DNA of 62,273 bases from a virus (Duplodnaviria > Caudoviricetes): IMG/VR virus record IMGVR_UViG_3300046779_000501, positions 1 to 62,273 of that record; one strand, 5' to 3'. This document shows, piece after piece, positions 3 to 62,151 of this stretch. The notes under the pieces were generated by a model that was given only the letters and a program-made list of their open reading frames with translations, had not been told where the DNA came from and searched no databases. The first letter of the stretch is position 1. Every line of letters starts with the position of its first letter. Both the position numbers and the translations under genes were made by a program.

Positions 3-788
3 GAATCACAATTAAAAGACATTCTAGATTCATTTATAAGGCAAAGTACTACCTTATATCCATTAGGAGAGATGCGAAATTATGACTTAGAGTTATCTGG
101 TTTGGAGGATGATGCTAAAGATTCACAAACAAAATCAGGTACTAAGAAACAAAAAGATCCTAAAGCAAACGAAAAAGCAGCAGTAAAGAGGAAACTAAAA
201 GATATACGAGCAGCGATAAATAAGATAGAAACAAAAGACGAGTTATCGAAATTTAAATTACTTTTGACAACAGCTCAAGAGTTGGGTATCTTGGATGAAA
301 TTAAAAACAAACAAGGTGTTACTCCCGAGGTGTTTAAAGCTCTGATGGACCAAAAGATTAAACAAGTGGATAACCAAATAACAATAGCACAACTTACTGA
401 ACCTGAAGGAATTGTAACTTTCACATTTATGAACAAGAAAGGAGAACAAAGAACAGGTTTAGTTATGGGTGTAGTTGATGGTACCAAATTGGAAATTAGA
501 GATATTACTGATGAATTAGAGACATCTCCAAGCGATTGGAGCTTTGCTGGTTCAGGAAAAAGTATTATCTTATCAGAGAAGGATGTTAATAAACAAGTTA
601 TTGCTATGAATATCGAATCTAAGATAGAGAAACCTGATGCTAGAACTAAGACAGAATCTAACAACGCACAGGCGACCGCAGCTGAAGATTTTGAAGCAAG
701 CAAGGAAGAGTTAAAAAAACTTGATTTAAACAACCCAAATGCTGCAGATGATGCAGCCAGTGATTTATTTGATAAATGTGATCTTTAA
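3..788 (+). CDS. C-terminal part of a large virion cargo/ejection protein (5' truncated by window edge)
   Basis: Frame is open from position 3 (gaa tca caa tta...) through the ORF-track ATG at 72. Stop overlaps the next ATG (TAATG). Lies directly upstream of the virion RNAP, as in crAss-like cargo gene blocks. Confidence 0.7.
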   Translation, partial: ESQLKDILDSFIRQSTTLYPLGEMRNYDLELSGLEDDAKDSQTKSGTKKQKDPKANEKAAVKRKLKDIRAAINKIETKDELSKFKLLLTTAQELGILDEIKNKQGVTPEVFKALMDQKIKQVDNQITIAQLTEPEGIVTFTFMNKKGEQRTGLVMGVVDGTKLEIRDITDELETSPSDWSFAGSGKSIILSEKDVNKQVIAMNIESKIEKPDARTKTESNNAQATAAEDFEASKEELKKLDLNNPNAADDAASDLFDKCDL

Positions 789-6700: not shown

Positions 6701-9700
6701 TCACTTAACCACAGATTAAAAGAAGCATATGTATCATCTATGAAAAAGATGATTGATATTGCTGAAACTAAATTAAGATTAGATTTAGGATATAAGGATC
6801 CTAATTCTGTTGATGATGGACAACCTATAGTAGATTTAGAAAAGCTTATTAATTATATTAAGAGCAGTTTAACTGCGCAAGATCTTGATGAGCAATCGGT
6901 CGACTTCTTACAGCTTACATCTAGTGGTGCTCTTAAATATCCAGGTGACTTATCTAGTAATCCTACTAAGATAGCAAAGGTTATTACAGCATTAGTTAAT
7001 AAAAGAATCATTGATCAGATTGTTCCCGGTGAACAGTACATCCAAGCATCTGGTGTAGGATTTGAGAAGTTCTCTAAACCAACTGAAAAAGATCTTGTAA
7101 AATACGGATCTAACGGATTACCATTCTACTATTGGGAAGAGGGTATGGAGAACGTATCCGCAATGAAGATTAAGATTGCTTTACATGGAAACTTTAAACA
7201 CCTATTGAAATTAAAACACAATGACGACAATGTTATTGGTACAATAGAGCGTTTGAATGAGATGGTTAGAGATGAGGAGTGGTTGAATAAAGGAGAACAT
7301 CGTAAGATGATTACTCTAGTAGGTGCTCGTATCCCAACTCAAGGTCCTAACTCTATGGAGTTTATGGAGGTGTTTGAGTTCTTACCAGAAGAAGCTGGTA
7401 ATATCATGGTCTTTCCATTAGAGATTGTAGCTAAGTCAGGTGGTGACTTTGACATCGATAAGATGATTACAATGGTACCATCTATTCAAGTCATCAACAA
7501 TGAGGTGATGATTAGAAAATCAAAAGCTACAACTAAGACATTAGATCAGATTCAGACAGCTCTTGATGAAGCATATGAAACTAGGAAGAAGCTTAATGCT
7601 AAGTATAGAGATCTGTTAGATGAGGAACTAGATAAGATGGAGTTAACTCCAGAACAAAAAGAGTTACGTAATTCATTCTTATCACCATTCTATAAAGCAT
7701 TTGATGCAACAACTAAAGAAGTATCAAGATTAAAGATAGAGTTAGCGTCTTCTAAAATAGATCCATCGGTTCAAGATTGGCAGATTGAAATTCTATACAA
7801 AGACATTGACGATGCGGAGATTGCTGCAGAGACTGCGTATGATAATCTATCTGAGAAAAAGAAAGAAATAGGTAAAGAACTCGGTAAGGAGAAGTTTGAA
7901 AAAGCTTTAGAGTCCATTAACAAGAAAAAAGAATCTGATAAGGGTTACAAAAAAGTATTGTCTACAATTAAGGATTTACTACTAGAGAAAAATACTTATG
8001 ATCCAGAATCTGAAGTTGGTAATGTAATGGATGCTATGAGAGGTATCTTAAGTAGAGCTGATAACTATATCAATCTAACACGTCCTAACTCTACAGCAGT
8101 ATTTACAGAAGATCCTACATTTGAGGATGAAAGTATCTCATCATTCTTAGATCCGGTTAACCGTACTTATAGAAGAGGTACCAATGTGACTAACAAATTA
8201 GTTGGTAAGAAGATGTCACCAACGCGAATCTTTGAAAATGTATATAATACAGTAAAGGCTGCTGCATTGTACAACGGTAAGATGGGTGTTGGTATGTTGG
8301 CAACGGGTAATACTTTCCATGAACTAGCAAGACAATCTAACTTGTTTATGGAACCTTTCAGAACAGAAGAGAAGAAAGGTAAAGAGTATGTTATACCACA
8401 AGTATTATTATTAAATCATAATACTGATAATGTAAATGATCAGAAGGTTATCTCATTAGCTGGTTTAAAAGATTACAATCTAGAGAACTATACAGCGGAT
8501 GTGATTTCTCAGTTAATGAACGGATACTTAGACGTTGCTAAGGATGACTGGGTTTATTCTATCAATGCTATTAAGCAGATGGAAGGTCAATTTGAGTTTA
8601 TGATGTTAGCAGGTGTTCCTGTAAAGACGGCAGCATTGATGTTAGCTCAACCTCTTGTACGTGATTACTTAAGCAAACTTAAAAAGTTTGGTAGTCCGTT
8701 TACATTGTTCTCTCCTGAAGATGGTATTGCAAATAATAATTTTGCTAAGATAGCTGCTATAAAAGATGTGCTTCTTAACAATGATATGGCGGAGAATGTT
8801 TTCCCCAAAAGAAAAGATGGTACTTATCAGAAGTTAATCAATACACCACAGATAATTACTGGCGCATTGAATTATATTGGAGATAGAACGGAGAACTTTA
8901 CAGATGAAGAGTTGATGGATAGATTGAATGTTAGACCTAGAAGTCAAGAGATCAATGAATTTGACAGACAGATCTTTGCACAATTTATAAATCTTACTTA
9001 CATGGCAGATCAGATTACATCTTTAAAGATGGCAATTCGATTTGATACTGTAAAGAACTCTAGTTATTTTGAAGCTTCAAGACAAGCATCAGACTTGTAT
9101 AGAATTCTAGATAAAGCTTTCTCTGAGAAGAGTATTGCTAGATTATTAGGTCAAACTATTGTAGGTTCTTTTATCAAAACTGATTTGATTAGAGAAGCTA
9201 TTCAAAGTGTATTACCATCTAACGGATCTGTTACTGTAAATAAAGCGATCATTAGAGCTCTTAATAACATGGATGATCTAAGTTATGATGAGCAATTACA
9301 GTTTGCTGAGGAGTTTAATAATGATTTGATTCTATATAGATTCCAGAACAAACTTTATAGCACTAATCCTTTTGATACAACCTATAGAGATCAGAGTATA
9401 TTTGAAGAGCAGATTCTTGAAAGAGGTGTGTTCTTTGATCCAAGAACTAATACATTCCATGTAGACAAGCGACAGATCGCAAGAGACTTTGATAGTTATG
9501 CGTTTACAAAAGACACTGAGTTTCAAGCGGGTGTTCCTGCAACAATGTTTATAAGATTTGATCCTACTATAAGAAAAGCAGTTTACTATAAGTTCTTATT
9601 GGAGAGAGAATACTTGAGAGCAACAATGCCTTTTACAGACATTGCAGACAATATGGAGTTCTTACAGTTCCTTACTCAGATTGGTAATAACCAAGATATG

Positions 9701-11063: not shown

Positions 11064-14000
11064 ATGAACGCGTGCCCAATTGGTCCAGAATGGAATAGAT
11101 TAGTAAGAGCTGTTGGTGAATTCCAAGCTTATAAAGATTACGTAGAGAGCGGATATCAAGTCCGTACTCCAGAAGCGGTGCGTGAGAAATTAAACATGAC
11201 TTCATACGAACCTAGTGTTCGTATTAATGGTAACCTCTATGAGTCAGAACCTAATCTTACAGATAGACATATAGAAGATATATATCAGAACTATGTCAAT
11301 CTTATGAATCGAGTTCGTGCTGGTAAAGCTGTAGAGTTTGAAACATTTAGAAGTTTGATGTCTGCATACCAGGTAGTTAACTATAAGAACACCTATATAT
11401 TTGGACAATATGATAGAGGAAATGCTGTGTTCATTACAAGGATGAACAGCTCACCTTCTTCTAAAGAACTTTTAGCGGAAGCTATACCTGCAATTGTTCA
11501 GAAAGGTATAGACGTTATATCATTTGTTCCAGAGGACTACGCTAAGAAGTTAGAGAGAAGTGGTTATACTATATCTAAGGTAGGATTTAAATATGACTTC
11601 AAAGGTGAGAAGATGGTTAAGTATGCTGCTGCATCTAGTCCAGAAGTATTCACTAAAATCTTTGGTAAACCTGTAGACAAAATCAACAGTAAAGAGTTAG
11701 AAGAATATAATGAAGCATTAGATTTGAGATACGCAGGTGTGTCTATTGATAGCGCACTCATAGCTCAAGCAGGAAATGATACAGCTAATATTCTTGAGAC
11801 ATACTTGAATCAATTTGGTATAGTCGTTAAGGATATTGAATTAATGCAAAAGAAAGTTGGTATTGATACCATGGGTTTTGCAGACATCCTATCCAAGATT
11901 GCATATATAAAAGACAGGTCAGAACTTCCTGACATTGCTGGTAAGTTTATTGCTTACATGATGCAGCATAATCCTCTAGTTAAAGATATCGCAAGAGACC
12001 TTGCAAAAAATGAAGGATTACTAACAACTAGATGGTTAGAAAGAGAGGGTGGAGAAAGAACTTTAATTGATGATTACGATAGTTTACCTGAAGAAGTAAA
12101 AGACAAGTACTACACAATCATTGGAAAGTTAATTAGCGCTGACTTAAAAAACAAAGTAACTAAAGGTTACAGTAAGTCTATGCTCGGTAAGATTAAAGCA
12201 ATTCTTAAAGAGTTCTTTAACTTACTTAGAAAGGTTGACATCGGAAAGATCAATACTAATATTGGTATTATCACAAATAATATTCTACAACAGAACGAGA
12301 ATTTTATTAAAGCATCTCCTTATAAACCAGGAGCTCCAAAGAAACCAGTTCAAAAGGTATCTCTAGAAGCAGCATTAGCAAAAGATGCATTTGGTAAATC
12401 AATTATCTATAAGCTATCTAACTATGGTTTCATACTTACAGGTAGTACCGCTGTATCTGAACAAGGATTGATATTAAGACCAGACGAGAACCCATTACAT
12501 GATATTGACTGGGTGAGTCCGTTCAATAGAGCAGAGACAGAAGCTAAGTTTAGAGAAGTGTATCCAGATGCTATCAAGGTTCGCGATATTATTGACGTTG
12601 ATTATTTAACTGATACGTTTTTGATTGCTCCCGATGGACATAGTATTAGAAACTATACTCCGGAAGTAGTAACAAACTCTAAAGGACAAGATCGTATTGA
12701 AGTAAGATACTATGAGGTTGTTAATGATAAAGGTGAAGTCGTAGGTACATATAGTAAACCTGAGAGTGATGAGATCGTAGAAGGTGTTGAGGCTAAACTT
12801 ATTGACTTCTTTGTACGAAAAGATAATAAACACGAAAGAGGTGCTTATCAATTTGTTACAGGTGATGGTCAGTTAATCTACTTGAGTAACTGGAAAGATA
12901 CTTTTGCTGCTAAACTAGCATGGGCTCGCTATAAAGATATCTGGGATTACAATAGATTTATACCTAATGAGAATCTACCTTTCATGCGTTCAGTAAGAGA
13001 ATTAGCTGAGGTTGTGCCCGGAGTATCTACAATGCTAGAAGGTGTTGAGATTTCTCAAATGCGTACTGACAATCTAAGAGCGATGTCAAATGTAGAGTCT
13101 ATTGTTAGAGCTCTATCTGCTAAGTTGGGAATACCATACCAGTTTGTAACAAGTGCACAAGCTGCTGAGATGTTTGCATCTGCAGGATTACCATTTACTA
13201 ACCAAGCTGGTTTCTTTATGGGTGGTGTTGTGTATTTGCTTTCTGATAATTTAAATACAGATACAGCTTTCCACGAATTCTCTCACCCATTTATCAGAGC
13301 AATTAGATTTGAGAATGAGAAATTATTTAATAAGCTTTACAATGATCTAACTAAAACAGAGACTGGTAGAAAACTTATTAATGTTGTAGCGAGTTTATAT
13401 CCTGAAATGTCTCAAGATACAGAGGAGTTTAAAGAAGAGGTTCTTGTATTTGCTGTAAGTAGACATGCTTCTGATTTAGTAAAACAAATTACTGAAGAAG
13501 CAACTGATCCAAAGTTTAATGGCATTGTCGATAAGATAATGTATGCTATTAAACAACTACTAAGAAAGTATCTAGGTAAATCTATTAAGGTATCAGAACT
13601 AAATGCTGATACAACTATTGAGGATTTGTCTGCGATGTTGGTCGGTGCTACTGAAATTATTTTTGACAATGAGAACGTTAGTCAAAGTGATGTTATATCT
13701 GAGGAGCGTCGTGGTAGAGAAGAGGTAAATCAATTACTTGGTCTTGGTGCAAAACCTTCAGGAGAGAAAGTATTACAAAATACAATTAATGACATATATA
13801 CAACAGCTATTAATCATGCTAACAAACTTTTGAAGAACAAGAGTTTGAAAGAAATGGCTGAAGTATTACGTTCTGTGTCAGATGAGTCTGACTACAAAAG
13901 AATTGTTTCTGATTTGAATGCTTTCCAAACAGAGCTTACTGGGAGAATAGAAAATATTCGTGACAGTGCGTTGTACGAAAGAAATCGTGCGGAAGCATTG

Positions 14001-17000
14001 ATAAACACACTATATCGATTAGAGAATATGAGTGAGAAGATGGTGCGATATATGGCAGAACTTCTTAAAGAAGAAGCTACACCAGAAATCGTAAGACGTT
14101 TCCACAACTATAATCAGATCGTAAGAGAGTGGGAAAAAGTTATGGCTGATATGAGATCAGCGCTTGCTAGAGAAGGTATCATTAATAATGAACTTACTAC
14201 TTTAGTTTCAAAGATTAATTCTAACCTAGAGACAGCGAATGATTTTGACATTGAGTTGGGTATGCGTGGTTCTGAAGAACTACTTACTAAAACTTTGGAA
14301 CCTTTAGCTGAACAAGTTAGAACTTATTATGAAGGAGTCATAGCAGAATTAGAAAAGAAAGGAGCACCAGACAGAATACTAGCTCGATATAGAGCTGAGT
14401 ATGAAGATGCAAAACTAGATAGAGGTGCTGTAAAGGATTGGTTATCTGGTAAGCGTGGTGACACACATCCTATCAGTGCGTGGTTGGAATCTTTCATGAA
14501 CATTCAGGATCCTATTATCTTCGGTTTAGCTTCTTATATTAATGATAACATTAGTGAAGTATTAGTTAAAGCACAACAGAGACAGAATCAAGTTACTGCT
14601 GAATTGATGACAATGATTCAAGCAGCAGGATTAGACGCTAAGAACTTAGCAGAGTTTAGAGAAGCTGTTTCTTATGTAGAGAAAGAAGGTATCTATAATC
14701 AGAAAGGAGAATATGTTCCTAGAGATAGATATGCATTTATCCATCATCTTAAAGGATGGAGAGATGACATGGGTAGACTTCAGAATGCTATCAAGGAAGC
14801 AGAGAAGAAAGCTGTAGAAACAGGAGACAAAACAGAACTTACTGCTTTGCGATCTGCACTTAAGCAGTATCTAGATGATCATTACTACGACGAGTACGAC
14901 AACCGCGTGCGTGCCGCAGAAAGTTTGTTTACTAAAGATGAGATTGGTAAGAAAGCATACATTGCTCGATGGGATATTATATCTAAGATTAATAACTTAG
15001 ATAGTAGTAGACGTCAAAGAGAAGACTATTTGGATTCTGATTTTATCAATGAGCGTAAAAGCTACTGGGAGGATTACAGAAACTTGTACTCTCTAACTAA
15101 AGCTGACGGCACAAGTAAGGATCCAAATAGCGATGAATATAAAATTGCAGTAAGATTGTTAGAACATAGAGCTGCTACAAAGCAATTCTACGAGCAAGTA
15201 CCTATTAAGGGTATGTTCCAAGGAGCACTTAAGACTTTCGAACAACAACTTATATATAAAGGAATCAATCCCGGTAGTAAAGCTTGGGATGAAGAACGTA
15301 ATCGTTGGATAGAAGAGAACACTGTTGTTAGAGTAACACCTCAGTTCTGGATAGACGTTCAAGATGTTCTACAAAAGATTAGAAATATTAAAGCTAAGCT
15401 ACCTCAAGATACACAAGAGAAGCTAAAGATGGATGAGTTGTTCAAGGAATTGAACGATCAGATGAGCGCTTATAGAGATGACAACGGTCAACCCGATGGT
15501 AGCATCATGTCCGAAAAGAAGAAGAACCGCATCAAAGAACTTGACGAGGAGATTGATAATGCAAGAGACATGTTATCTAAGCTAAGTAACTTAACTCCTG
15601 AAGAGGATAAGTTTATGAAAGACTTTGAAACAGATCTTGCGTTGTTTAGTTTTACACAGAATCAGTTCTATCAAACAGATGATTTTGATTCAATAGATGA
15701 GCAGTTCTTTAAGAACAACCCAGAAAGATACGCAAGATACCAACAACTTGCAGATAAGAAAAAGGACGCGTCGTTATCCGAAATGGATATTGATGATTTG
15801 AATTACTTATACAAACAGTTGAATGCATTAAGAAGTCGTTCAGCAACTACTCAGTACTATGATCAGATTAATAGTTTTATCAAAACTGATCAGAACGGAC
15901 AAGGTATTGATCCAACTTACTTAGAAGAGAAAACCGGATTGAATTACTTTGATAGTTATAATATTGATGTGCTTACAGAAGATGCGGAAGCTCTACAAGA
16001 TTTGTTTGAACAAAGTCCTGAGTTTGAAAAGTGGTTTAAAGCTAATCACATTAAAAAGGAATTCGAATACACATACGGTCCTAATGAAGGTGAAAAGAAA
16101 ATTACTTACAAGAGATCTAGTGCTTGGAGTGTAACTCGTCCTAATGATGAGAAGTACTACGAGAAAACTGACATCTTAGATGAAGCAGGTAATGTTGAGG
16201 AGACTATTAATAGAGTACCTAATCAAACTTATTTTAGAAGAGCGCTTAAGAAAGAGTACAGAACTGAAAGAGTTACTATGAAGGAAGCTCTTGAGATGGG
16301 CGATCTTACAAAAGCTACTGTTGACGAGCAGGGTCGTTGGTTACCACGTCCTGATAGTAAATACAGAAATGATGAGTACTTCCAAATGAAGTCTGTAAAC
16401 AAAGCTAAGTTTGATTTAGTAAATAAATTACTCTTGACTCACTTACAGAACCAAGAAGGACTGAATGTTAATGCTAGACTAGGGGTATTCTTACCGCGTT
16501 ATCGTAAAGATAAATACGAGATGTTTACATCGGGAGAAACAAAAGATCGTTTCCAGTCTATGATTAAGAACTTCAAAGCGTCTTTCCAAAAAGCTGTTGA
16601 TGATTATAGCGAAGGATACAATGCTGAGAATCAAGTTACGTATGTAAGTTTGGATATGTTTGATAAGGAACTTGCTGGTATTCCAATTACAGGTAAGTTT
16701 GACCTAGATCTTAATGAAACATCTGAAGATGTAATCTCCGGATTGTTTAGATATATGTTATCAGCAGAGCGCCAGAAGAAACTTATTGAGATTAACCCTA
16801 ACGTAAGAGCAATTCAAAAGGTTGTAAATAGTGAGGAGGGTAAAGTAAAAGATATGCTTAAAGCAAACAAACGTGATTACTTAACTCAGGGAATTACGAA
16901 CTTTGCTACTAAGAAAGGAAGATCTGTAAGATCGCAAGTCATTAATGCATTTATAGAGCGTGAGTTTGAAGGTAAGCAACTTGCAGGACCTACAGAAAAC

Positions 17001-18398
17001 ATGACTGCTATAAACAAGTCTGCTAATCTTATAATGGGATTATCGTCATATGCATTCTTTGCATTTGATATGCAGTCAGCTTTGAAAAACTCATTCAATG
17101 CTACCTTCCAGTCTATCATATATGCTGCGGGTGGTAAAGGATTAAGTCAAAAGAGTTTAGCGAAAGGTGCGTACTGGGCGCAATTTGCGTCAGCTGCTGT
17201 ATCTTTTGAGATTAATAAGTTTGGTCCAAAGTCTTTGGATGTACAACTTATTGAGATGTTCGATCCTGAAGTAACTCGATTTGATAAAAACGACGGTGAG
17301 AAGTTTGCTGAAAGTTCTACAAGAAGTTTCAAACGAGATGTAGCTAATCTAAAGTGGGTAACTAACTTCAGAGCATGGAGTCAGATGAATGCTACATTGC
17401 AGTTGTTTGGTGGATTGATGCATCACCAGAAGGTAAATCAAACTATCAATGGTGTCACAACAGAGATTCCATATCTAGAAGCTTGGGAGATTAAGAATAA
17501 TCAATTAACTCTTAAGGAAGGTATAGATAAAGAATGGGAAGTTGGTGGTAAAAAGTTCTTACAGATGCGTAATAAAGTTCAAGCTGCTAATAAGAACTTG
17601 AATGGTTCTCTATCAAGAATGGATCAACCTATGGCAAACCGTTACATGGTCTACAGAACAGTCGCTTATATGAAAACATGGTTTACCCGTCAGTTCATGA
17701 GCAGATTTGGATACCGTGGAAACTGGAGAAATCCAAAACATCGTTGGGATATACAGTCAAATGAGATGGTGATGGGTTACTATACTGAAGCTTTAGATGC
17801 TATTGCTAAAGGTATTATATCATTAGGAAAGGACTTTAAGTACATGACACCTGACCAAAAGGTAGCCGTAAGAAAGATGCTAACTGAATTAGCAATCGGT
17901 ATATTAGGTCCTCTTTTGATTAATTTCTTATTTGATTATGACGATGACGATCCAGAAAGATACGAAAAACTTCGTCAGAAGTCAGGAGCGTTACCTCTAT
18001 TAGGTGTTGCTGAAGATCCTCTACATGAGTTTAATGCAACCGGTTGGGCAGAAAATCAAGCATTGCTACTTAGTAAAACTACCATGAATGAGTTAGGAGC
18101 ATTTATTCCGCTACCCGGATTCGGTGCTGACGACTATATCAATATGCTTAAACTGGAATCAGTAGCTGTAAGTAGTACAGTAACCAACTTAGGTAAAGCA
18201 TTCTTTAATCTAGCGGGGTTGCTAACAGGAGACCCGTCTACAGATTATAAACGAGATGTAGGACCTTATGAATGGCAACAAGAGGGTGCACCTAAGATTC
18301 TAAACTTCCTAGCAAAAACGGGTGGTTTGAACGGAAAGCAGATCGAAGGAGCAAACGCATTAAAAAACTTTGAAAGTGCACAAGAACGTTTCAAATAA
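11064..18398 (+). CDS. Giant polyvalent virion cargo/ejection protein with zincin-like and nucleotidyltransferase-like domains (2444 aa)
   Basis: N-terminal MNACP...EW..L start typical of crAss cargo proteins. HEFSH zincin motif at 13272-13286. LTGSTAV...HDIDWV motif at about 12426-12515. Long helical C-terminal region. Confidence 0.75.
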   Translation: MNACPIGPEWNRLVRAVGEFQAYKDYVESGYQVRTPEAVREKLNMTSYEPSVRINGNLYESEPNLTDRHIEDIYQNYVNLMNRVRAGKAVEFETFRSLMSAYQVVNYKNTYIFGQYDRGNAVFITRMNSSPSSKELLAEAIPAIVQKGIDVISFVPEDYAKKLERSGYTISKVGFKYDFKGEKMVKYAAASSPEVFTKIFGKPVDKINSKELEEYNEALDLRYAGVSIDSALIAQAGNDTANILETYLNQFGIVVKDIELMQKKVGIDTMGFADILSKIAYIKDRSELPDIAGKFIAYMMQHNPLVKDIARDLAKNEGLLTTRWLEREGGERTLIDDYDSLPEEVKDKYYTIIGKLISADLKNKVTKGYSKSMLGKIKAILKEFFNLLRKVDIGKINTNIGIITNNILQQNENFIKASPYKPGAPKKPVQKVSLEAALAKDAFGKSIIYKLSNYGFILTGSTAVSEQGLILRPDENPLHDIDWVSPFNRAETEAKFREVYPDAIKVRDIIDVDYLTDTFLIAPDGHSIRNYTPEVVTNSKGQDRIEVRYYEVVNDKGEVVGTYSKPESDEIVEGVEAKLIDFFVRKDNKHERGAYQFVTGDGQLIYLSNWKDTFAAKLAWARYKDIWDYNRFIPNENLPFMRSVRELAEVVPGVSTMLEGVEISQMRTDNLRAMSNVESIVRALSAKLGIPYQFVTSAQAAEMFASAGLPFTNQAGFFMGGVVYLLSDNLNTDTAFHEFSHPFIRAIRFENEKLFNKLYNDLTKTETGRKLINVVASLYPEMSQDTEEFKEEVLVFAVSRHASDLVKQITEEATDPKFNGIVDKIMYAIKQLLRKYLGKSIKVSELNADTTIEDLSAMLVGATEIIFDNENVSQSDVISEERRGREEVNQLLGLGAKPSGEKVLQNTINDIYTTAINHANKLLKNKSLKEMAEVLRSVSDESDYKRIVSDLNAFQTELTGRIENIRDSALYERNRAEALINTLYRLENMSEKMVRYMAELLKEEATPEIVRRFHNYNQIVREWEKVMADMRSALAREGIINNELTTLVSKINSNLETANDFDIELGMRGSEELLTKTLEPLAEQVRTYYEGVIAELEKKGAPDRILARYRAEYEDAKLDRGAVKDWLSGKRGDTHPISAWLESFMNIQDPIIFGLASYINDNISEVLVKAQQRQNQVTAELMTMIQAAGLDAKNLAEFREAVSYVEKEGIYNQKGEYVPRDRYAFIHHLKGWRDDMGRLQNAIKEAEKKAVETGDKTELTALRSALKQYLDDHYYDEYDNRVRAAESLFTKDEIGKKAYIARWDIISKINNLDSSRRQREDYLDSDFINERKSYWEDYRNLYSLTKADGTSKDPNSDEYKIAVRLLEHRAATKQFYEQVPIKGMFQGALKTFEQQLIYKGINPGSKAWDEERNRWIEENTVVRVTPQFWIDVQDVLQKIRNIKAKLPQDTQEKLKMDELFKELNDQMSAYRDDNGQPDGSIMSEKKKNRIKELDEEIDNARDMLSKLSNLTPEEDKFMKDFETDLALFSFTQNQFYQTDDFDSIDEQFFKNNPERYARYQQLADKKKDASLSEMDIDDLNYLYKQLNALRSRSATTQYYDQINSFIKTDQNGQGIDPTYLEEKTGLNYFDSYNIDVLTEDAEALQDLFEQSPEFEKWFKANHIKKEFEYTYGPNEGEKKITYKRSSAWSVTRPNDEKYYEKTDILDEAGNVEETINRVPNQTYFRRALKKEYRTERVTMKEALEMGDLTKATVDEQGRWLPRPDSKYRNDEYFQMKSVNKAKFDLVNKLLLTHLQNQEGLNVNARLGVFLPRYRKDKYEMFTSGETKDRFQSMIKNFKASFQKAVDDYSEGYNAENQVTYVSLDMFDKELAGIPITGKFDLDLNETSEDVISGLFRYMLSAERQKKLIEINPNVRAIQKVVNSEEGKVKDMLKANKRDYLTQGITNFATKKGRSVRSQVINAFIEREFEGKQLAGPTENMTAINKSANLIMGLSSYAFFAFDMQSALKNSFNATFQSIIYAAGGKGLSQKSLAKGAYWAQFASAAVSFEINKFGPKSLDVQLIEMFDPEVTRFDKNDGEKFAESSTRSFKRDVANLKWVTNFRAWSQMNATLQLFGGLMHHQKVNQTINGVTTEIPYLEAWEIKNNQLTLKEGIDKEWEVGGKKFLQMRNKVQAANKNLNGSLSRMDQPMANRYMVYRTVAYMKTWFTRQFMSRFGYRGNWRNPKHRWDIQSNEMVMGYYTEALDAIAKGIISLGKDFKYMTPDQKVAVRKMLTELAIGILGPLLINFLFDYDDDDPERYEKLRQKSGALPLLGVAEDPLHEFNATGWAENQALLLSKTTMNELGAFIPLPGFGADDYINMLKLESVAVSSTVTNLGKAFFNLAGLLTGDPSTDYKRDVGPYEWQQEGAPKILNFLAKTGGLNGKQIEGANALKNFESAQERFK

Positions 18399-54944: not shown

Positions 54945-55312
54945 TAGAAGTCTACATTAGGATTAAACTTGGTGATTTCAGGATCTATAACTTCAACAGC
55001 AGATGCGGGTAATTCTACTTTCTCTCTACTAGTATATTGCTCGTTATATGATTTGATAACAATACAATCTAAAATAGTATCTGCATAGTCACCTACTGTA
55101 CCTGACGGTAATACAACAATTACCATTAGATAAACAGGAGTAGGATCACCGGTAGGAAACCATTTCACGGTAGAATAATGATATTTATCTTGCATATCAT
55201 AATACCATTGCTCTTGTGTTTCAATCCATGCAATGTACTCTGCTTCATTTTGTGCTTCAAGAAACGCTTGTTCTTGTAGATACGCACTGTAGTCTTCTTC
55301 TGAATTAAACAT
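54944..55312 (-). CDS. Hypothetical acidic protein
   Basis: ORF with AT-rich leader. Confidence 0.65.
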   Translation of the reverse strand: MFNSEEDYSAYLQEQAFLEAQNEAEYIAWIETQEQWYYDMQDKYHYSTVKWFPTGDPTPVYLMVIVVLPSGTVGDYADTILDCIVIKSYNEQYTSREKVELPASAVEVIDPEITKFNPNVDF

Positions 55313-55379
55313 ATTGTTTATTTTTAATTGGTTAATAAGAATAGTATATTAGGACCCGATGTTACTCGAGTCCCATATA

Positions 55380-55892
55380 TCACGAAAGTTTAGAAAGACT
55401 GTATACTCTCTTTACAATATGACCCATATCACTGTCAATGTTGATAGTATCTTTCTTCTCGATAAGATAACCGGGAAAGTGATTAGTTAGTCTATTGAAG
55501 ATTTCATCTTCATTACTGAACTCCCAATCACCCCATCGCAATGCCATAGAGCATCCAAGTTCTTCTGACGTATGGTTAATACCATCAGTTGACGGGAAAT
55601 AATACGTTTCACAAACACCAAATGACGTAGATGCTATGATATGGAATCTACTTTGACTCAATATTGAATCATTGAAACTCGTATAAGCATCATCATCATC
55701 TTCCAGAGTTTCTGATTCATAAAGTTCCATCCAAGACTCTTCTTCTAACTGATCTTGTTCTAACTGATCTTGTTCGGAATGATACATCTGTTCGTAGACT
55801 TCTTCTACCATATGATTCATTTGAAGAACAACAGAGAATAAATCACTCTCTTGTACCATAGGGTACTTTTCTTTGAATTCTTGTAGTGTCAT
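55380..55892 (-). CDS. Highly acidic hypothetical protein
   Basis: D/E-rich, internal EQDQL-EQDQL duplication. Confidence 0.65.
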   Translation of the reverse strand: MTLQEFKEKYPMVQESDLFSVVLQMNHMVEEVYEQMYHSEQDQLEQDQLEEESWMELYESETLEDDDDAYTSFNDSILSQSRFHIIASTSFGVCETYYFPSTDGINHTSEELGCSMALRWGDWEFSNEDEIFNRLTNHFPGYLIEKKDTINIDSDMGHIVKRVYSLSKLS

Positions 55893-55924
55893 TGCTTTTA
55901 AATGTTAGTTAATGATTTAATGGA

Positions 55925-56050
55925 TTATTTTAATTCTTCATCTAGATAATACATTCTAACAGCTTTAGCTCTTATATCTGCATTATTCCACGAAGGGTGT
56001 AATTCTTTAACTTGTGCTTCATAAGCATCAATCATTTCTTCTTTTGTCAT
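55925..56050 (-). CDS. 41-aa micro-protein (not in ORF track)
   Basis: AT-rich leader. MTKEEMIDAYEAQVKELHPSWNNADIRAKAVRMYYLDEELK. Confidence 0.65.
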   Translation of the reverse strand: MTKEEMIDAYEAQVKELHPSWNNADIRAKAVRMYYLDEELK

Positions 56051-56075
56051 TGTTTAACTTTTAATTGTTTGTATT

Positions 56076-56193
56076 TCAAGTTTGCCCCTCTGCACTCAGA
56101 TGTGTTACGCCAGTGACTAGCTAATACTAGTATATGGATGTTCGTACACATCTGCTCACCCTTGGGAAGTGAGTTGTGGTGCATTAACAATGA
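56076..56193 (-). ncRNA. Candidate twister self-cleaving ribozyme (type P1)
   Basis: - strand reads UUG-U-UAA-UGCA-CC-acaa-CUCAC-UUCCCAAGG-GUGAG-[CAGAUGUGU...ACACAUCUG]-AG-UGCA-GA-GGGG-CAA. This gives the conserved UAA, P2, P4 with a UCCCAAG loop, a T1 pseudoknot to GGGG, and CC/GG for T2. Confidence 0.72.
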
Positions 56194-56282
56194 GAGGACT
56201 GATTACCCTCTCTGTACCGTTTTGCAGGTTGAAGCTCTATTCTCCACACCTAGTCTGTGACTATACAGTGGCTGGTTGTTAA
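56184..56282 (-). ncRNA. Candidate multibranch RNA element 2
   Basis: Closing UUAACAA/UUGUUAA. Internal stems CUGUA/UACAG, UAGUC/GACUA, AGGU/ACCU, GAGAGG/CCUCUC. Confidence 0.4.
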
Positions 56283-56365
56283 CAATGACACATCTGTGAA
56301 TAGCTTTGAATGTGCATTACTGTAAGCCTTGCACTTACTCGGGAGCATGTATTCCTCCATTGTTA
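56280..56365 (-). ncRNA. Candidate four-way-junction RNA element 3
   Basis: 8-bp closing stem UAACAAUG/CAUUGUUA. Arms GGAG/CUCC, GUAAG/CUUAC (loop UGCAAGG), CACAU/AUGUG. Confidence 0.45.
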
Positions 56366-56366
56366 G

Positions 56367-56467
56367 TACTCTCATAAGGTTGCAACCCTTAACATCTTTA
56401 CCATATTCGTCACTGTCTAAAAGACTAACGCGGAAAGAACTATACTACCTGCAATTGGATGAGAGTA
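56367..56467 (-). ncRNA. Candidate tRNA-like element 4
   Basis: Acceptor-like stem UACUCUCA/UGAGAGUA directly stacked on a T-arm-like UAAGG-GUUGCAA-CCUUA. Long central arm in place of an anticodon arm. Confidence 0.45.
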
Positions 56468-56899
56468 TATAAACCACTAATACCTGTTACAAGTATATAG
56501 CAATATGTTGATTTTCCCACGGTCCATACCAAAACCGATAATGATGTGAACACTCTTATATCGTTATACAAGATGCGTGGGAAATCAACGATTCGAAACA
56601 ATCCGGACTACAATGTATTACAAATCACTATTATAGTAGTACTGTATATAGTCCGTATGTTTCAATGTTATTCGCTGTCGATTATGATCTCAACAGTATT
56701 AATGCGGGAAATCTCGATCTTCTGATCAACAAAAGCTCGGAGTAACTCAATAGAATCGGTCTCTAAAAGAACAACTCTCTTAAGCTTACATATAAGGATA
56801 TAAGTAACCATACGTATATACATAGAGTAATGGAGAGAGCACGGTAGATAAGTAAAGTCTTGCTATACTTATATAGAGGTGAACTCAATTACGAATTGT

Positions 56900-56982
56900 G
56901 GTGTGTGTGGTGAGAGTAAGAACTGTGAGAGTGTTTGATTCTCACAGTCCTTAACGTTCTCACTATCAGCACGTTACACACG
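56900..56982. other. Long imperfect hairpin just downstream of the 56984-57508 gene
   Basis: ACTGTGAGA/TCTCACAGT core, extended by GTGAGA/TCTCAC and GTGT/ACAC. Confidence 0.55.
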
Positions 56983-56983
56983 T

Positions 56984-57508
56984 TTAGAACGGTGCGCTTC
57001 CGTCGTTAGCGTTCTCATCGACAGGTTCGTTCTGTGCGACAGGTTCGTTATTAACGGGTGTTGCATCATTCGCAGGTGTCTGCTTCAACGCATTCACGGG
57101 AACTGCCGCTCTACTCGCGAACATGTTAGCGATGATAGACTTACTCGCTACTTCAGCGATTTGTTTCGCCATCTCGCTTCTAACTTCCGCTTCGATACCG
57201 TTCTTACGAGCGATACTGCGTAGCTTGCGTTCTTCGAAGTTAACCACGTAAGCACGTCCTGTCGTAGGACTCACGGTTACTTCGATGTTCACGCCTACGT
57301 GACCTGGATGCATGTACAACGGAAGACCAGTCTCTTCGCAATGTTGCAACTTATATCCTTGCGATGCAAGAAATTGCGAATATGCGTTCAACTCTGTCTG
57401 TGTCGCATCTACGATTCTGTAGACGAACATGTCCATCAACTGACCTTTGCGGTCACCGTTCTTGATTTTCACGGAGAACACTCCGTTTGGTTTTTCTACT
57501 GCTTTCAC
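56984..57508 (-). CDS. Putative early protein with SSB-like tail (ends GSAPF)
   Basis: GTG start overlapping the upstream stop, low-complexity linker, DGSAPF end. Paralog of 57780-58283. Confidence 0.7.
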   Translation of the reverse strand: MKAVEKPNGVFSVKIKNGDRKGQLMDMFVYRIVDATQTELNAYSQFLASQGYKLQHCEETGLPLYMHPGHVGVNIEVTVSPTTGRAYVVNFEERKLRSIARKNGIEAEVRSEMAKQIAEVASKSIIANMFASRAAVPVNALKQTPANDATPVNNEPVAQNEPVDENANDGSAPF

Positions 57509-57687
57509 TGTAGTATAGTATTAAAATGCGTAAGGACGTCACGCTCGTACAATCGACACCTATCGACTGCACCGAAATAGAAATCGTTCCCCAAATAGAA
57601 AAAACCCCGTAGATTACGCACCTGTCGACACGGACGACACCAACGTAATTTGTCGGTAGAATAGTAATCATTCGACATATACGACAT
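57505..57687 (-). CDS. 60-aa putative early protein
   Basis: A-rich leader (acaaaaacaaa-ATG), 4-nt overlap with the downstream start, CxxC. Confidence 0.5.
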   Translation of the reverse strand: MSYMSNDYYSTDKLRWCRPCRQVRNLRGFFYLGNDFYFGAVDRCRLYERDVLTHFNTILQ

Positions 57688-57741
57688 TTTGTTTTTGTCG
57701 TTCTATGTAGATTCGTTCTCCATATAGAGATTGAAAAACAA

Positions 57742-57768
57742 CAGACACTCACGCTAGTGAGTGCCTGT
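57742..57768 (-). terminator. Hairpin downstream of the 57780-58283 gene
   Basis: CACTCAC-gcta-GTGAGTG stem followed on the - strand by TCTGTTGTTTTT. Confidence 0.5.
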
Positions 57769-57779
57769 GTTTTGAGATC

Positions 57780-58283
57780 TTAGAATGGTGCACTACCAGC
57801 ATCAGACTGCTGTTCTTCAATCGGATCTGCTTCAGGAGCAGGTGGTTGAGCAGCAGCAGCAGGAGCGTCAGCGACTGGTGCAGCAGCGACAACCTTTCCT
57901 GCGACGATCTCGCGGATCTCCTGCATCGCCATACGCTCGATGCGGTTTAACCCCGCGTCTGTCGTAGTGAGTGCAGGATACTCTTCTTGCAGACGCTTCT
58001 CGATTTCCCCGCTGCTGATGATAAACCAGCGGGTTAAACCCGTCTTCGGATCGAGCTTGTTGGAGCGATAGCAGTATGCATCTCCGCGATGTCGCTTACT
58101 ATTCCAGCTCCTGATCATTGGAAGACCCGTCGCTGAATCAGGTCTGCTCTTCGGATTGTCGCGGAGAAATACTGCGAGAGCATCTCCTGCTAATCCGTGG
58201 ATAAGGAATGTGTGCGTGACGAAACGCGTTCCGTCGAAGGACTCCCCCTTCGCGGAATTGGAAAACTGTAATTTGTAATACAT
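57780..58283 (-). CDS. Putative early protein with SSB-like tail (ends GSAPF)
   Basis: Ala/Pro linker, DAGSAPF end, TGLP motif shared with 56984-57508. Confidence 0.7.
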   Translation of the reverse strand: MYYKLQFSNSAKGESFDGTRFVTHTFLIHGLAGDALAVFLRDNPKSRPDSATGLPMIRSWNSKRHRGDAYCYRSNKLDPKTGLTRWFIISSGEIEKRLQEEYPALTTTDAGLNRIERMAMQEIREIVAGKVVAAAPVADAPAAAAQPPAPEADPIEEQQSDAGSAPF

Positions 58284-58291
58284 CTAATCTG

Positions 58292-58631
58292 TAAGTCGTA
58301 TTAGTTAGACGCGAAGCGGTACATTAGTAACGCCACGACACGCAGTGGCGTGAAAAAGGTCACACCTTGTACATTACGATTAAGTCGTATTAGTTAGAAT
58401 GCGATAGAATCGCGCGCCTCAATTGTACTTGAGGACGCGCAATCCATTAGGTGCATACACAGCACCCCTACACTTGCTTGCGTGTGAGCACGCTTCGTCG
58501 AACGTAGTAAATACTACACTCTTGTCAGTCATGACACTGTGCTTACCAACACGTTGGTACACTTGATAAATAACTTTGTACATAAACTTTTTTTATTTAA
58601 TTACACCCATCATTCAGTTGTATCAGTTAGA
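58292..58631 (-). repeat. Dispersed 17-18 bp repeat, candidate early promoter (- strand TCTAACTRATACRACT)
   Basis: TAAGTCGTATTAGTTAGA exact at 58292-58309 and 58381-58398. Variant CAGTTGTATCAGTTAGA at 58615-58631. Confidence 0.7.
58419..58583 (-). CDS. 54-aa putative first early gene (not in ORF track)
   Basis: A-rich leader. MYKVIYQVYQRVGKHSVMTDKSVVFTTFDEACSHASKCRGAVYAPNGLRVLKYN. A repeat copy lies about 30 nt upstream. Confidence 0.5.
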   Translation of the reverse strand: MYKVIYQVYQRVGKHSVMTDKSVVFTTFDEACSHASKCRGAVYAPNGLRVLKYN

Positions 58632-58940
58632 AAAGAAGAGGGGGTACCCCGGTAGAGCGACAGCACCCGGGGACGTCGCGCATACGACCCCCTACACTCT
58701 CTCCTACATTAGTAATCTCGTGCCGTAATAACCCCAGGGGTACACGCACAACCAGATGTACCCGGGGGTATAATACTCAGTGGTATAATTATAACTGGTT
58801 ATATAACACCCGTTAAGGTATGATTATGTATGTTATAACGGACATTATACCCTAAAAGGTGTGCTAATGCATATTATATATGACATTATGTAGATAATCC
58901 GAATTATGCTTTTATACTTGTAGATATCTTTGTACTTTCG
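58632..58940. other. Divergent non-coding switch region with GC palindromes (candidate genome terminus/packaging/origin region)
   Basis: GGGGTACCCC palindrome, GGGTACA/TGTACCC hairpin, repeated AYACC-N4-6-GGTRT-like sites, strand switch. Confidence 0.4.
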
Positions 58941-58952
58941 TATATTATATAT
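58940..58952 (+). promoter_or_regulatory. Candidate late promoter motif GTATATTATATAT
   Basis: Identical to 18411-18423, abuts the ATG at 58953. Confidence 0.5.
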
Positions 58953-59402
58953 ATGGCGACTAATAACTATTTTGACATAGCTAGCGGAAAGATTATACCG
59001 ATTCCCACACCAGATAAACAAGTACCTAATGCACCCGGAGTGGTTATCATTGATGCTTATGCGCTTGGTGTAGATGAGTATACGATTTCCCCTACTGAGT
59101 TTACGTCTTATGATATGACGTTTATTGTTGCTGGTGCTGCTTCAATAGGTAAGAGTATTGTTGTTAATCTTCCCGATGTTAGTAATGTGGCACCTCCCCA
59201 AAAGATTACTATAAAGAATATATCACCTGATAATGTGGATCTGTATGCTTCGAGAGTAGATGCAGATACTTATGCGTTAGGTAACTATTTCCAAACTTTA
59301 AATACTCCGAATGTATCCGGAAATAAATCATCTATTAGCTTGATTGCTGATAATCAGTATGATGCACAATGGTACATAACTAACTTGTTTATATATCCAT
59401 AA
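58953..59402 (+). CDS. Putative tail/structural protein (beta-rich)
   Basis: V.LP......ITIKN...S..L......WYI pattern seen in tail-fibre distal domains. Confidence 0.55.
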   Translation: MATNNYFDIASGKIIPIPTPDKQVPNAPGVVIIDAYALGVDEYTISPTEFTSYDMTFIVAGAASIGKSIVVNLPDVSNVAPPQKITIKNISPDNVDLYASRVDADTYALGNYFQTLNTPNVSGNKSSISLIADNQYDAQWYITNLFIYP

Positions 59403-59415
59403 AAAATAAAAAATA

Positions 59416-62151
59416 ATGAACGTACTTCTTAGTTCTTTTCCAGGTGCCAACATGAACGACAAACTTGTTTATGCGGGTGCCAATGCTGTAGCAGGTTCTG
59501 TTATTGACTGTACATCCTATACAGGAACACAAACAATCACTAGAACGATTAGTGTTACTCGAAGCTTAACTTTTATACTTGGTAATGCTAGCTTAGTTGC
59601 AAACTTTGCAGCAGGTGATATTAACTCGCACATCTTTTGGGTGTTAGCAGATAATGTTCGTATTGAAGGTGTTAGCCGCACTAGTAATGCTACAGCAAAC
59701 GGTTATACCCGTTTTACAATGACTAACCAAGCTAGAGGTTACCATGTATTTGTAGGAAATAACACCGCATCAGGTGGTACTACATGGACTACCTATAATA
59801 ACTTCTCAATGGCAAACATTGATTGTCAAGGTATTCAGTCTGTTATTACAAATAGTGGTGGATCACCTGTATACGGAACAACTGGATCAGGAGGTGTATT
59901 TGTATTGAGTGGTAATCCGTCATCTGAGACAAGCACTGTATCTAATGTACGTATTGATAATGTATGGGTATCAGGAACAAGAACCCACGGTATCTTCTTA
60001 TATAATGCTGTAAACTCTAAGTTGACTAACTGTAGAGTAAGTTCTACAGCAGGTCATGGTATCTTCCTGTATAAAGGAAAAGGCAACTCATTAGACACAT
60101 GTTTTGCAACAGGTTGTAACCTTGCTGGTTTCTCTATTAAGGAAAACAACTATACTAGCTTGACTAGTTGTGCATCTGACTCTAATGGTATGGGTTATAT
60201 TCTAGATGAGAGTATGAACTGTACCCTAACTTCTTGTGGTGCCGAGGCAAACGTAATCCGAGTTACCCAACCAAACAACTTGGGTGTAACTATGGCAGCG
60301 TCAACACCATTTACCTTAACTGATATTGGTGCTGAAGCAGCGTTTAGATTTAAAGGAACTAGTTTCTGGTTAAGTTCAGGTTTGAATGTACAAAGTTGTG
60401 AGTCTAATAGTTTGATAAGCTGTTACTCTAAAGATCCTAGTAATGTATTAACAGGAGTATTTACAAGTGAGTACACTGCTCACTTTGGTCTAACAGGATA
60501 CGTTAGAAACTGTAGTATTATCAGTCCTAATACAGCTGGTACTGCTGTAACTAAGTATATCTTTAGATTAGATGAAAGTACGGTGGATGATGCATTTGTA
60601 CCTGGATTCAATACTATTAACTATAGAGCAATAAGTTACGATCCTACCAATCCAACAGAATCTGCTAATGGTTCATTTGCAGCAGTTGCTACAGTACTTG
60701 ATCAGGGTGCTTCAAATATGTTTGAACTAGCTGGTTCAGTAAAGTCATTTAATAATACTTCTCAAACTCTTGTTAAGACAGATGCTTATGCTAATGTAAA
60801 TAGAGAGATAGTCACTGATACTTTAGTTATTCCTACATATACATCACACCCTACTGTTCCTGGTAACTATGCAGGAGGTATGTATTTCAATACTACATTG
60901 AATAAGTTGTATATGTGGAATAATGGTTGGTATGACACATGTTGCAGTACTGTTACTACACCTGCATGTGCGTGGCCGTCTGGTTTCACTTATCCTGGTA
61001 ATCAAAATATTTTAAATCGCCTTGATCTAAAAGTAATTTTTGCTAATAATGTAGCTTATGTAGTAAGTGCAGCTAATTCAACATCAACACCTTATTCAAC
61101 TTTTGGATTACTTGATTTAAGTAATAATGCTTTTTATAATATACAAGAATCTTATGGTATAGATCAATATGAATGGATGTTTGATGTTGGTGAGAATAGT
61201 GCGGGTCAATTATGTACATACGCATTAGGTTATATACCCAATAGTGTTGGTAATCTCGGTGACTATACTACAGGAACACGTATATGGATGCGTAATACTG
61301 TAACTGGACAGGTTTCTTTTTTAGATGAGCCTGGTGATACAGAAATTCCAGGAGCTGTTTTAACTATGGGTGATGTGCGTGTAGCTGCTGATAAATTATG
61401 GGTATTTTTCAGAAGAGCTACTGCAGATAGAGCCTTATCATATATTAAATCTTATAGCTTAGATGATTTAAGTTTAATAGACTTTTACGATATTGAATCT
61501 CAATGGCCACTATCTGGAATGTCACCTAGATGTTATGCATCATATAGAGATAGAATGGTGTACGATGAAGTTAATGAAAACTTTATTTTAGGTGGTGGTG
61601 GTTCTTACCTTAATACATTTGGTCAAATATCTACGTTGTTTACATTTAATATACAAACAGGAACATTATCAGAATTAGATATTGTAAATGCTCCTAGTCT
61701 TATAAACAGAGGTTATCTTACTTTACACATTGCAAACGACATACTTTATATAGGATGCTCAAAAACAGGTAGCATTTATAAAAGAAGTATAACATCAGGT
61801 CCATATGACTATATTGGTAGTGTTTCTGTATTTGATGATATGAATATAACTGGTATACAATCATATACTGTAGGTGCTACAGATTATTTATTTGTTACTA
61901 GTTATACAGGAACGTTTTCAGGTTATCCTATAAATAACAATAGTAATAATACAATGTTATTCCTTTATGATGTTACCAATGATTTATTAGACTCAGCTAG
62001 CCAGATTGTTCCACTTTCCAATTTTTTTTACAAACCAATGGTTGCAATGACTGTTGATGAAACAAACGGTGTTTTATGGTTAAATACTCAAAATGCAGAA
62101 GACGGAACTCCTGCTGCAGGTAGTTTATTAAAAACTTGTTTACCAGCTTAA
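59416..62151 (+). CDS. Tailspike / tail fibre with right-handed beta-helix (pectate lyase-like) domain
   Basis: Repeats such as HGIFLY...NC....GHGIFLY...C.A..C...GF, a MYFNTTLNKLY.W linker, and a beta-propeller-like C-terminal part. Confidence 0.8.
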   Translation: MNVLLSSFPGANMNDKLVYAGANAVAGSVIDCTSYTGTQTITRTISVTRSLTFILGNASLVANFAAGDINSHIFWVLADNVRIEGVSRTSNATANGYTRFTMTNQARGYHVFVGNNTASGGTTWTTYNNFSMANIDCQGIQSVITNSGGSPVYGTTGSGGVFVLSGNPSSETSTVSNVRIDNVWVSGTRTHGIFLYNAVNSKLTNCRVSSTAGHGIFLYKGKGNSLDTCFATGCNLAGFSIKENNYTSLTSCASDSNGMGYILDESMNCTLTSCGAEANVIRVTQPNNLGVTMAASTPFTLTDIGAEAAFRFKGTSFWLSSGLNVQSCESNSLISCYSKDPSNVLTGVFTSEYTAHFGLTGYVRNCSIISPNTAGTAVTKYIFRLDESTVDDAFVPGFNTINYRAISYDPTNPTESANGSFAAVATVLDQGASNMFELAGSVKSFNNTSQTLVKTDAYANVNREIVTDTLVIPTYTSHPTVPGNYAGGMYFNTTLNKLYMWNNGWYDTCCSTVTTPACAWPSGFTYPGNQNILNRLDLKVIFANNVAYVVSAANSTSTPYSTFGLLDLSNNAFYNIQESYGIDQYEWMFDVGENSAGQLCTYALGYIPNSVGNLGDYTTGTRIWMRNTVTGQVSFLDEPGDTEIPGAVLTMGDVRVAADKLWVFFRRATADRALSYIKSYSLDDLSLIDFYDIESQWPLSGMSPRCYASYRDRMVYDEVNENFILGGGGSYLNTFGQISTLFTFNIQTGTLSELDIVNAPSLINRGYLTLHIANDILYIGCSKTGSIYKRSITSGPYDYIGSVSVFDDMNITGIQSYTVGATDYLFVTSYTGTFSGYPINNNSNNTMLFLYDVTNDLLDSASQIVPLSNFFYKPMVAMTVDETNGVLWLNTQNAEDGTPAAGSLLKTCLPA

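Follow-up and report, generated by a model that had tools for sequence, protein, structure and literature searches.

A probable phage variant of the type-P1 twister ribozyme within a large family of twister-shaped RNAs from uncultured freshwater phages

The minus-strand RNA element at positions 56194..56078 of a 62,273-base virus record, which is estimated to be 52% complete and was analysed over its whole length (the window), belongs to a large family of twister-shaped RNAs that lie between genes of uncultured freshwater phages. The element is probably a phage variant of the type-P1 twister ribozyme, predicted from its sequence to self-cleave between U56186 and A56185. It reads CUCA-UUGU-U↓AA-UGCAC-C-ACAA-CUCAC-UUCCCAAGG-GUGAG-CAGAUGUGU-(40 nt)-ACACAUCUG-A-GUGCA-GA-GGG-GCAA-ACUU, where the arrow denotes the predicted cut. 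All of the elements named in the original prediction were located on the minus strand at their expected positions, among them the UAA step (U56186, A56185-A56184), a UGCA (56183-56180) followed by CC (56179-56178), and a second UGCA (56094-56091) followed by GA (56090-56089) and GGGG (56088-56085).

The outermost helix of the element, P1, pairs UUGU (56187..56190) with GCAA (56082..56085). It had been described as 3 bp long; the pairing is indeed present, and its length is 4 bp when U56187-G56085 is counted, UUGU/GCAA including this one G-U. The predicted scissile step (56185..56186), positioned by its adjacency to P1 and by the twister rule, is followed by A56184. The 5' strand of P2, UGCAC (5 nt, 56179..56183), pairs with GUGCA (56095-56091) and precedes C56178 and the junction ACAA, which occupies the place of P3 (56174..56178). 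P4 (56155..56173) comprises CUCAC/GUGAG (56173-56169 with 56159-56155) and the 9-nt loop L4, UUCCCAAGG (56168-56160), from which CCC (56164..56166) pairs with GGG (56088-56086) in the T1 pseudoknot. P5 (56097..56154) displays a 9-bp stem (56154-56146 with 56105-56097) that carries a 40-nt insert (56145-56106). It is followed by A56096, which all 103 copies share, and by GUGCA, the 3' strand of P2 (together 56091..56096), and then by G56090-A56089 and the GGG forming the 3' strand of T1 (56086..56090). By analogy with twister as reviewed (PMC5408937), G56090 would be the putative general-base G and A56089 the A of the A-A pair. P2, P4 and P5 form in the minimum-free-energy fold of 56200..56070, with a z-score of -3.83 and none of 200 shuffles as stable. 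This predicted fold is among the better-supported RNA folds obtainable from sequence alone. Directly 5' of P1, on the same strand, lies a hairpin, GAGAGG-loop-CCUCUC (56192..56212), which was listed by a scan for terminator-like structures and may be P0-like, or may be a 3'-end-protecting or terminator-like element for the upstream cleavage product. The first downstream ORF, of 41 amino acids (55925..56050, minus strand), has its ATG 135 nt past the predicted cut and 31 nt past P1.

A blastn search in distant mode of positions 55000-57500 against a phage collection returned no match. As relatives of the flanking 170-aa protein were sought and none were found, homologues were looked for through the RNA motif itself. 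Viral contigs were scanned with a pattern covering the 5' half only, UAAUGCACC, a gap of 8-14 nt and UCCCAAGG, which revealed at least 120 loci, with a gap of 9 or 10 nt in 118 of 124 matches among those listed. The 3' half, UGCAGAGGG, was never part of this search pattern, and an exact copy of it is present within 420 nt downstream in 114 of 125 listed matches, the window included. The remaining 11 comprise five with a one-mismatch UGCAGAGGG, three ended by the locus edge and three with none; L005 and L016, which lack UGCAGAGGG, were rejected as plain chance matches to the 5'-half pattern. The length from UAA to GAGGG in the listed matches spans 60-355 nt, with a median of 127.5 nt. This coupling of the two halves bears on the proposal that the element reflects chance resemblance, or is an ordinary intrinsic terminator or attenuator. 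The upstream hairpin with its U-rich tail does score as terminator-like, and Rfam offers no match; nevertheless, the 5'-half descriptor, which matches once in the window, is expected 0.00 times in shuffled versions of it (100 shuffles), and the compensated pseudoknot described below is no feature of terminators. The proposal was effectively refuted by the coupling of the halves and the covariation, and its probability is close to nil.

A covariance model built from 31 short members identified one copy in the window with 86.2 bits, a score to be expected since the window sequence is among the 31 used to build the model. The model matched 50 of 50 host contigs and then again 50 of 50; in the first set, 36 contigs displayed one match and 14 displayed two or three, clustered together. 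Host records at least 90% complete (n = 7) measure 88-124 kb. In prokaryote data with one genome per species, the family pattern occurred in only seven contigs, all within metagenome-assembled genomes; these fall into five phyla, with three of the seven in Bacteroidota, and were not used to name a host, the evidence being too weak and mis-binning too likely. The closest relative in this region, L020/L149, retains the window's flanks and P1 and carries a wholly different insert. Tandem copies with little or no spacer were observed in L028 (393-739, plus strand), L197 and L199, and in L028 the next UAAUGCACC comes directly after GAGGAA. Cutting at both copies of such a tandem would release a unit-length RNA comprising one ribozyme and its insert. 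In L154 and L193, which are identical in sequence, and in L196, UAAUGCA(C/U), GUGCAGAGGGG and P5 are kept, the CCCAAGG loop is missing, and P4 is tiny-looped or absent. These copies cannot form T1 and may be decayed or belong to another subtype; since they have no L4, part of the family cannot act via the mechanism proposed here.

Pair counts were made on 103 distinct copies aligned to the family model. Overall, 91.7% of cells are paired, compared with 77.4% in shuffles and 28-49% with slid partners, and none of 500 shuffles reaches the observed value. P4 (98.6% of cells paired) has compensatory changes in all five pairs, P5 (94.7%) in nine of ten, P1 (65%) in all five, T1 (99%) in all three and the five-pair P2 (99%) in two of five. 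The P1 closing pair covaries strongly, with UG in 34 copies, UA in 25, CG in 16, AU in 4, GU in 3, GC in 1 and no pairing in 19; by an independent count, the P1 helix averages 2.57 bp in this register and 1.28 with shuffled partners. The P1, P4 and P5 changes support both the twister-like architecture and the predicted position of the cleavage site. T1 had been proposed to join the loop to the bases after GA, and compensation is now seen in each of its three pairs: UUUCCAAGG occurs with GAGGA in L166 (U-A), UUCACAAGG with GAGUG in L167 and L186 (A-U), and UUCCAAAGG with GAUGG in L187 (A-U), so that the three pairs change in one, two and one rows, respectively. The P2 strands are almost invariant; scans of the whole viral collection gave a single real variant at each of positions 15 and 12, with two more G15 copies among further contig copies. 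UGCGU occurs with ACGCA in L188 and L191, a G-C replacing A-U, while L182 presents G15-U113; the 15-113 pair is AU in 99 copies, GC in two and GU in one. The covariation in P2, P4 and T1, whose absence at homologous loci had been named in advance as grounds for rejecting the motif, is therefore present (two of five, five of five and three of three pairs, respectively).

The scissile U and the following A do not vary among 103 distinct copies, partly by ascertainment; G occupies the G56090 column in 99 of 101 copies and A the A56089 column in all 101, and the L4 loop is nearly invariant across the 103 copies. Since the alignment is fitted to the family model, and the patterns that retrieved most copies hold the 5' half constant, independent observations come from changes in the 3' half. 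Helices P1, P2, P4 and P5 and the T1 pseudoknot are real, and the family exists.

The second tertiary contact of twister, T2, presents a different picture. The original prediction had read the CC of the element against the GG of the loop as a compensatory CC/GG form of T2, and in that form the relatives do not bear it out: the first C covaries with the 3' strand of P2 while the loop G stays G. Across 103 copies, the first C and the 3' strand (columns 16-112) form CG in 84, UA in 14, UG in three and other combinations in two, whereas the first C and the loop G (columns 16-38) combine as CG in 83, UG in 16 and UA in one. A scan for copies with a changed first C found 12, all U, and among the 11 U16 copies that include the 3' half, eight have GAAUGCA (U-A) and three have GAGUGCA (U-G). 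P2 therefore has five pairs, the changes in the first C being matched on the 3' strand rather than in the loop. The second C (C17) is conserved in 101 of 103 copies, and the first loop G in all 102 copies with a letter at that position. Variants of the last loop G comprise one real, uncompensated copy (L169) and one chance match, in addition to the ambiguous L191, where U16 occurs with A at the last-loop-G position. Variants of the first loop G number zero in viral contigs; in metagenome contigs, three of 19 matches are real, none of them compensated and one visibly decayed, and the other 16 are chance matches. These three loop-variant scans yielded no covariation for any T2 pair, the loop GG being nearly invariant. 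From the sequence, a single T2-like pair, C56178-G56161, is possible and is the sole candidate left.

In contrast with this near-invariant core, the P5 inserts are hypervariable, 123 of them falling into 105 similarity clusters, with the insert of the window being a singleton; different P4 sequences are in a few cases followed by the same insert type. The inserts are mildly structured, presenting a mean z-score of -1.27 with 26% below -2 relative to mononucleotide shuffles. Such a distribution could be expected if the element acted at the DNA level, with the conserved halves serving as recombination anchors for the exchange of insert cassettes and the RNA fold being secondary. The opposition between core and inserts, the recurrence of insert types behind different P4 sequences and the replacement of the insert between conserved flanks and P1 in L020/L149 all agree with that explanation. 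Nevertheless, the compensatory changes in P4, P5, P1, T1 and P2 imply selection on RNA pairing, which a DNA site does not need, and cassette exchange may add to the main constraint but cannot be it. A primarily DNA-level role is accordingly very unlikely. More speculatively, and with a low probability that is nonetheless above that of a DNA-level role, the family might be a natural modular platform in which a near-invariant twister-type core is always combined with a hypervariable, often structured P5 cargo. Were this so, the first C of L2 could alternate between the fifth P2 pair and the loop G, the latter giving a canonical-style T2, and if the P5 cargo or a bound factor tips that choice, the elements would be natural allosteric twisters, each phage having its own signal for early-transcript cleavage. 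Alternatively within the same platform, the core may excise and display diverse small RNAs.

The letters of the phage family were compared with the canonical twister consensus, the review of the class giving features only. As outlined in the review (PMC5408937), P1, P2 and P4 are essential in twister and P0, P3 and P5 optional, while the scissile U-A step adjoins P1, its A is highly conserved, and a conserved G lies in L1. According to the same account, P2 comprises four pairs and a sheared A-G pair, T1 comprises three pairs and an A-A pair, and T2 involves a conserved L2 G-C and two bulged loop nucleotides between a U-A and an invariant G-C pair; it also reports a suggestion that an altered number of P2 pairs may disturb the active site. 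P0, P3 and P5 occur in 21%, 78% and 1% of twisters, respectively (PMC6154101). The phage element and type-P1 twister (RF03160; PMC5408937, PMC6154101) share the order P1, U↓A-A, P2, junction, P4 with its loop, P5, P2 3' strand, G-A, GGG and P1 3' strand, with stems P1, P2 and P4 in sequence, termini in P1, three Watson-Crick pairs in T1 and an optional P0-like hairpin 5' of P1. The phage loop is readable as U...A with two bulged purines, U-(U)-CCCA-A-GG, and A56184 and G56090 are present, conserved and available for the sheared pair next to P2.

The differences lie both within the core and in its appendages. P2 displays five Watson-Crick pairs of fixed sequence, UGCAC/GUGCA, instead of the four of twister, and L2 has C-C rather than G-C, with the first C pairing locally and not with the loop. 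The phage loop, which ends in G-G, is 9 nt long where that of twister has 8, owing to an additional U; this extra nucleotide, already pointed out in the original prediction, agrees with the nucleotide count in the review (PMC5408937). The loop-closing pair is C-G and variable, in contrast with the invariant G-C of twister. P3, found in 78% of twisters, never occurs in the phage family, while P5, found in 1%, always does, and its inserts give motifs of 60-355 nt. The Rfam twister-P1 model, proposed at the outset as a check on the assignment, produced no match in the window. RF03160, which has a gathering score of 67.2 bits, was absent at E ≤ 10 from the whole record and from 10 homologous loci, including copies with a short P5, and the phage family was without a match to it at any threshold tried; the Rfam twister models matched none of 50 host contigs at E ≤ 1. 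Rfam release 15 at gathering scores gave no match anywhere in the window, and no twister, twister-sister or other ribozyme was detected at E ≤ 10 on 55800-56500. A literature search found no description of the variant, and the supplements of Roth et al. 2014 and Weinberg et al. 2015 might hold such sequences. As T2, the length of P2 and the curated model all set the element apart from twister as described, it is filed as a twister variant and not as a plain member.

Other self-cleaving RNAs provide partial parallels. The T-variants of Schistosoma mansoni (PMC8501958) resemble the phage element in possessing a twister core and a weak or mismatched P1 and in their location at the 5' end of the RNA they serve. 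They differ from it in retaining the canonical core, varying instead in P1 and in the number of A residues at the cut site, and in being hosted by eukaryotic retrotransposons, whereas the phage family is altered within the core (P2, T2 and L4). Twister variants with a relaxed P1 are described there as cleaving in vitro, so the short and weak P1 of the phage element is no strong objection to activity. Twister-sister (RF02681) shares phage-related contexts and a vague likeness to twister in sequence and fold. As reviewed (PMC5408937), it cuts the opposite loop strand and comes without pseudoknot evidence, unlike the phage family with its T1; no RF02681 match was found at E ≤ 10 on 55800-56500 or in homologous loci. 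Hatchet (RF02678) and Pistol (RF02679) have unrelated folds and share the neighbourhoods and strand of the motif, in non-coding stretches between phage genes, where they and the phage motif presumably do the same job, a transcript cut at a fixed site.

Hatchet matches of 81-82 bits (cut-off 51) occur in two of 20 loci, L142 (461-623, plus strand) and L143 (420-554, plus strand), about 0.9-1.05 kb upstream of the motif and on its strand. In L023, a weak Pistol-like match (562-619, minus strand; 25.4 bits against a cut-off of 34.5, E 0.21) precedes the motif by about 140 nt, again on the same strand. The clustering of ribozymes with other ribozymes is, as reviewed, the basis on which new classes have been discovered. 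In L043, only 10 nt separate the motif from the 3' end of a preceding GOLLD RNA (RF02032; 1-391, plus strand; 90 bits, E 5.6e-23). Truncated at its 5' end by the edge of the locus, this RNA does not reach the gathering score; a fuller copy is found within L165. The motif could define the GOLLD 3' end. tRNAs occur on the strand of the motif in L134 (1421-1502, minus strand), L151 (16-571, minus strand), L135, L137, L128 and L130, with the L134 tRNA directly after the motif's 3' end and four tRNA matches about 0.9 kb downstream in L151. The motif is intergenic on the coding strand, no ORF of at least 50 aa spanning it in 26 of 31 loci. A hairpin with a minimum free energy of -5 or lower is found within 38 nt upstream in 64 of 106 copies, mostly ending 1-6 nt before U-1, and the mean minimum free energy of these upstream 38 nt is -6.48, compared with -3.43 in shuffles. 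After the motif, 70 of 106 copies have an ATG-led frame that remains open throughout the rest of the 90-nt flank, and many of these frames start 30-54 nt past GAGGG.

In the window, the G+C content is 34-37% outside a richer patch at 56-60 kb, values in 56000-60000 reaching 0.41-0.43 as compared with 0.33-0.375 elsewhere. Two minus-strand ORFs in this patch, 57780-58283 and 56984-57508, have no PHROG or Pfam match, and a strong terminator-like hairpin lies at 57768-57741 (minus strand). The small ORFs flanking the motif gave nothing in PHROGs and Pfam. Downstream on the same strand, small ORFs are followed by genes for a DNA polymerase, a primase, a DnaB-like helicase, an exonuclease and a clamp-loader-like ATPase. 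The DNA polymerase matches cultured phages only at 37% identity or less, and assignment of a phage family name, including "crAss-like", was not supported by the analysis. Two adjacent giant ORFs on the plus strand, 788-11062 (3424 aa) and 11064-18398 (2444 aa), are without family matches in Pfam and PHROGs, respectively. Just upstream of the motif, a module at 56193-56319 (minus strand) opens with UAAUGCACA, which shares its first nine letters with the motif and gives the motif's opening with one C missing, contains the P5-stem sequence CAGAUGUGU and has ACAGAGAGGG at its end. Four runs yielded RNA-library contigs that match this module at 95-100% and share a boundary at 56318/56319. It was considered as a second copy of the motif and rejected, the family model being blind to it even with filters off and its z-score of -0.29 being no better than that of shuffles. 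A further module of about 35 nt (56358-56398, minus strand), consisting of a GGGUUGCAACCUU hairpin and then GAGAGUAC, recurs in about 20 related loci within approximately 320 nt of motif copies. Overall, the leader resembles a chain of small modules in shuffled order.

Thirteen metatranscriptome runs contain small shares of the region as assembled contigs. In four runs, pieces of relatives cover the separate leader modules and both halves of the motif, and in three of the four examined (X1, X3 and X4) contigs of relatives span the predicted cut site; being assembled, they may derive from DNA. As contigs carry no readable RNA ends, they neither show nor exclude cleavage. An alternative proposal is that the twister-like fold does not cut itself, and is instead a scaffold or protein-binding element presenting the P5 insert or a regulatory structure of the 5'-UTR. 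This proposal, unlikely on balance yet carrying appreciable weight, draws on the contigs that bridge the site, on the departure of P2 length, T2 and L4 from the twister description, on the lack of Rfam twister matches and on the near-invariance of both P2 strands, which suggests sequence-specific recognition; moreover, structure is what the data support and catalysis is predicted from it. It fits poorly with the most conserved positions coinciding with the twister active site (the U↓AA step, GA, T1 and the loop A-A), with a true self-cleaving Hatchet nearby on the same strand and with the occurrence of the motif at sensible places for processing, 10 nt past the GOLLD 3' end in L043 and directly before a tRNA in L134.

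We therefore favour a self-cleaving variant of type-P1 twister, because the two halves are coupled, the helices and T1 covary, the twister active-site positions are near-invariant, and the motif is intergenic and near validated self-cleaving classes on the same strand (Hatchet). Points against self-cleavage are the absence of RF03160 matches, the five-pair P2, the lack of a canonical GC/GC T2 and the 9-nt L4 with its variable closing pair, together with the often unpaired P1, the contigs crossing the site and the copies without L4. In the proposed mechanism, the element would act in cis on a leftward (minus-strand) transcript running from the non-coding leader into the small ORFs and then the DNA-replication genes. 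The RNA would fold into P1, the five-pair P2, P4 with its loop and P5, and T1 would form between the loop CCC and GGG. This fold is predicted to bring G56090 and A56185 to the scissile phosphate, and the RNA would be cut at U56186↓A56185. Cleavage would leave a 2',3'-cyclic phosphate on the upstream product, immediately past the hairpin, while the downstream product would carry a 5'-OH, the compact ribozyme fold, a 31-nt AU-rich linker and the first ORF. From the features described above we infer cleavage itself, how the G and the A act, any T2 contact and any effect on RNA stability or expression.

Should cleavage be confirmed, the twister ribozymes would gain a large subclass carried by phages. 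Its structure indicates where the twister core tolerates rewiring, with one T2 pair apparently swapped for a local pair, a longer P2 and a larger loop, and the rewired core offers a direct test of structural and mechanistic models. The family also illustrates that standard covariance models can overlook an abundant ribozyme family entirely, and its P5 position, which takes inserts of widely varying length and sequence, is of interest for engineering. For the phages themselves, cleavage, if true, would mark a fixed site of early-transcript processing adjacent to tRNAs, GOLLD RNA, Hatchet and small ORFs, and would provide a handle on the role of self-cleaving ribozymes in phages, which reviews describe as unresolved.
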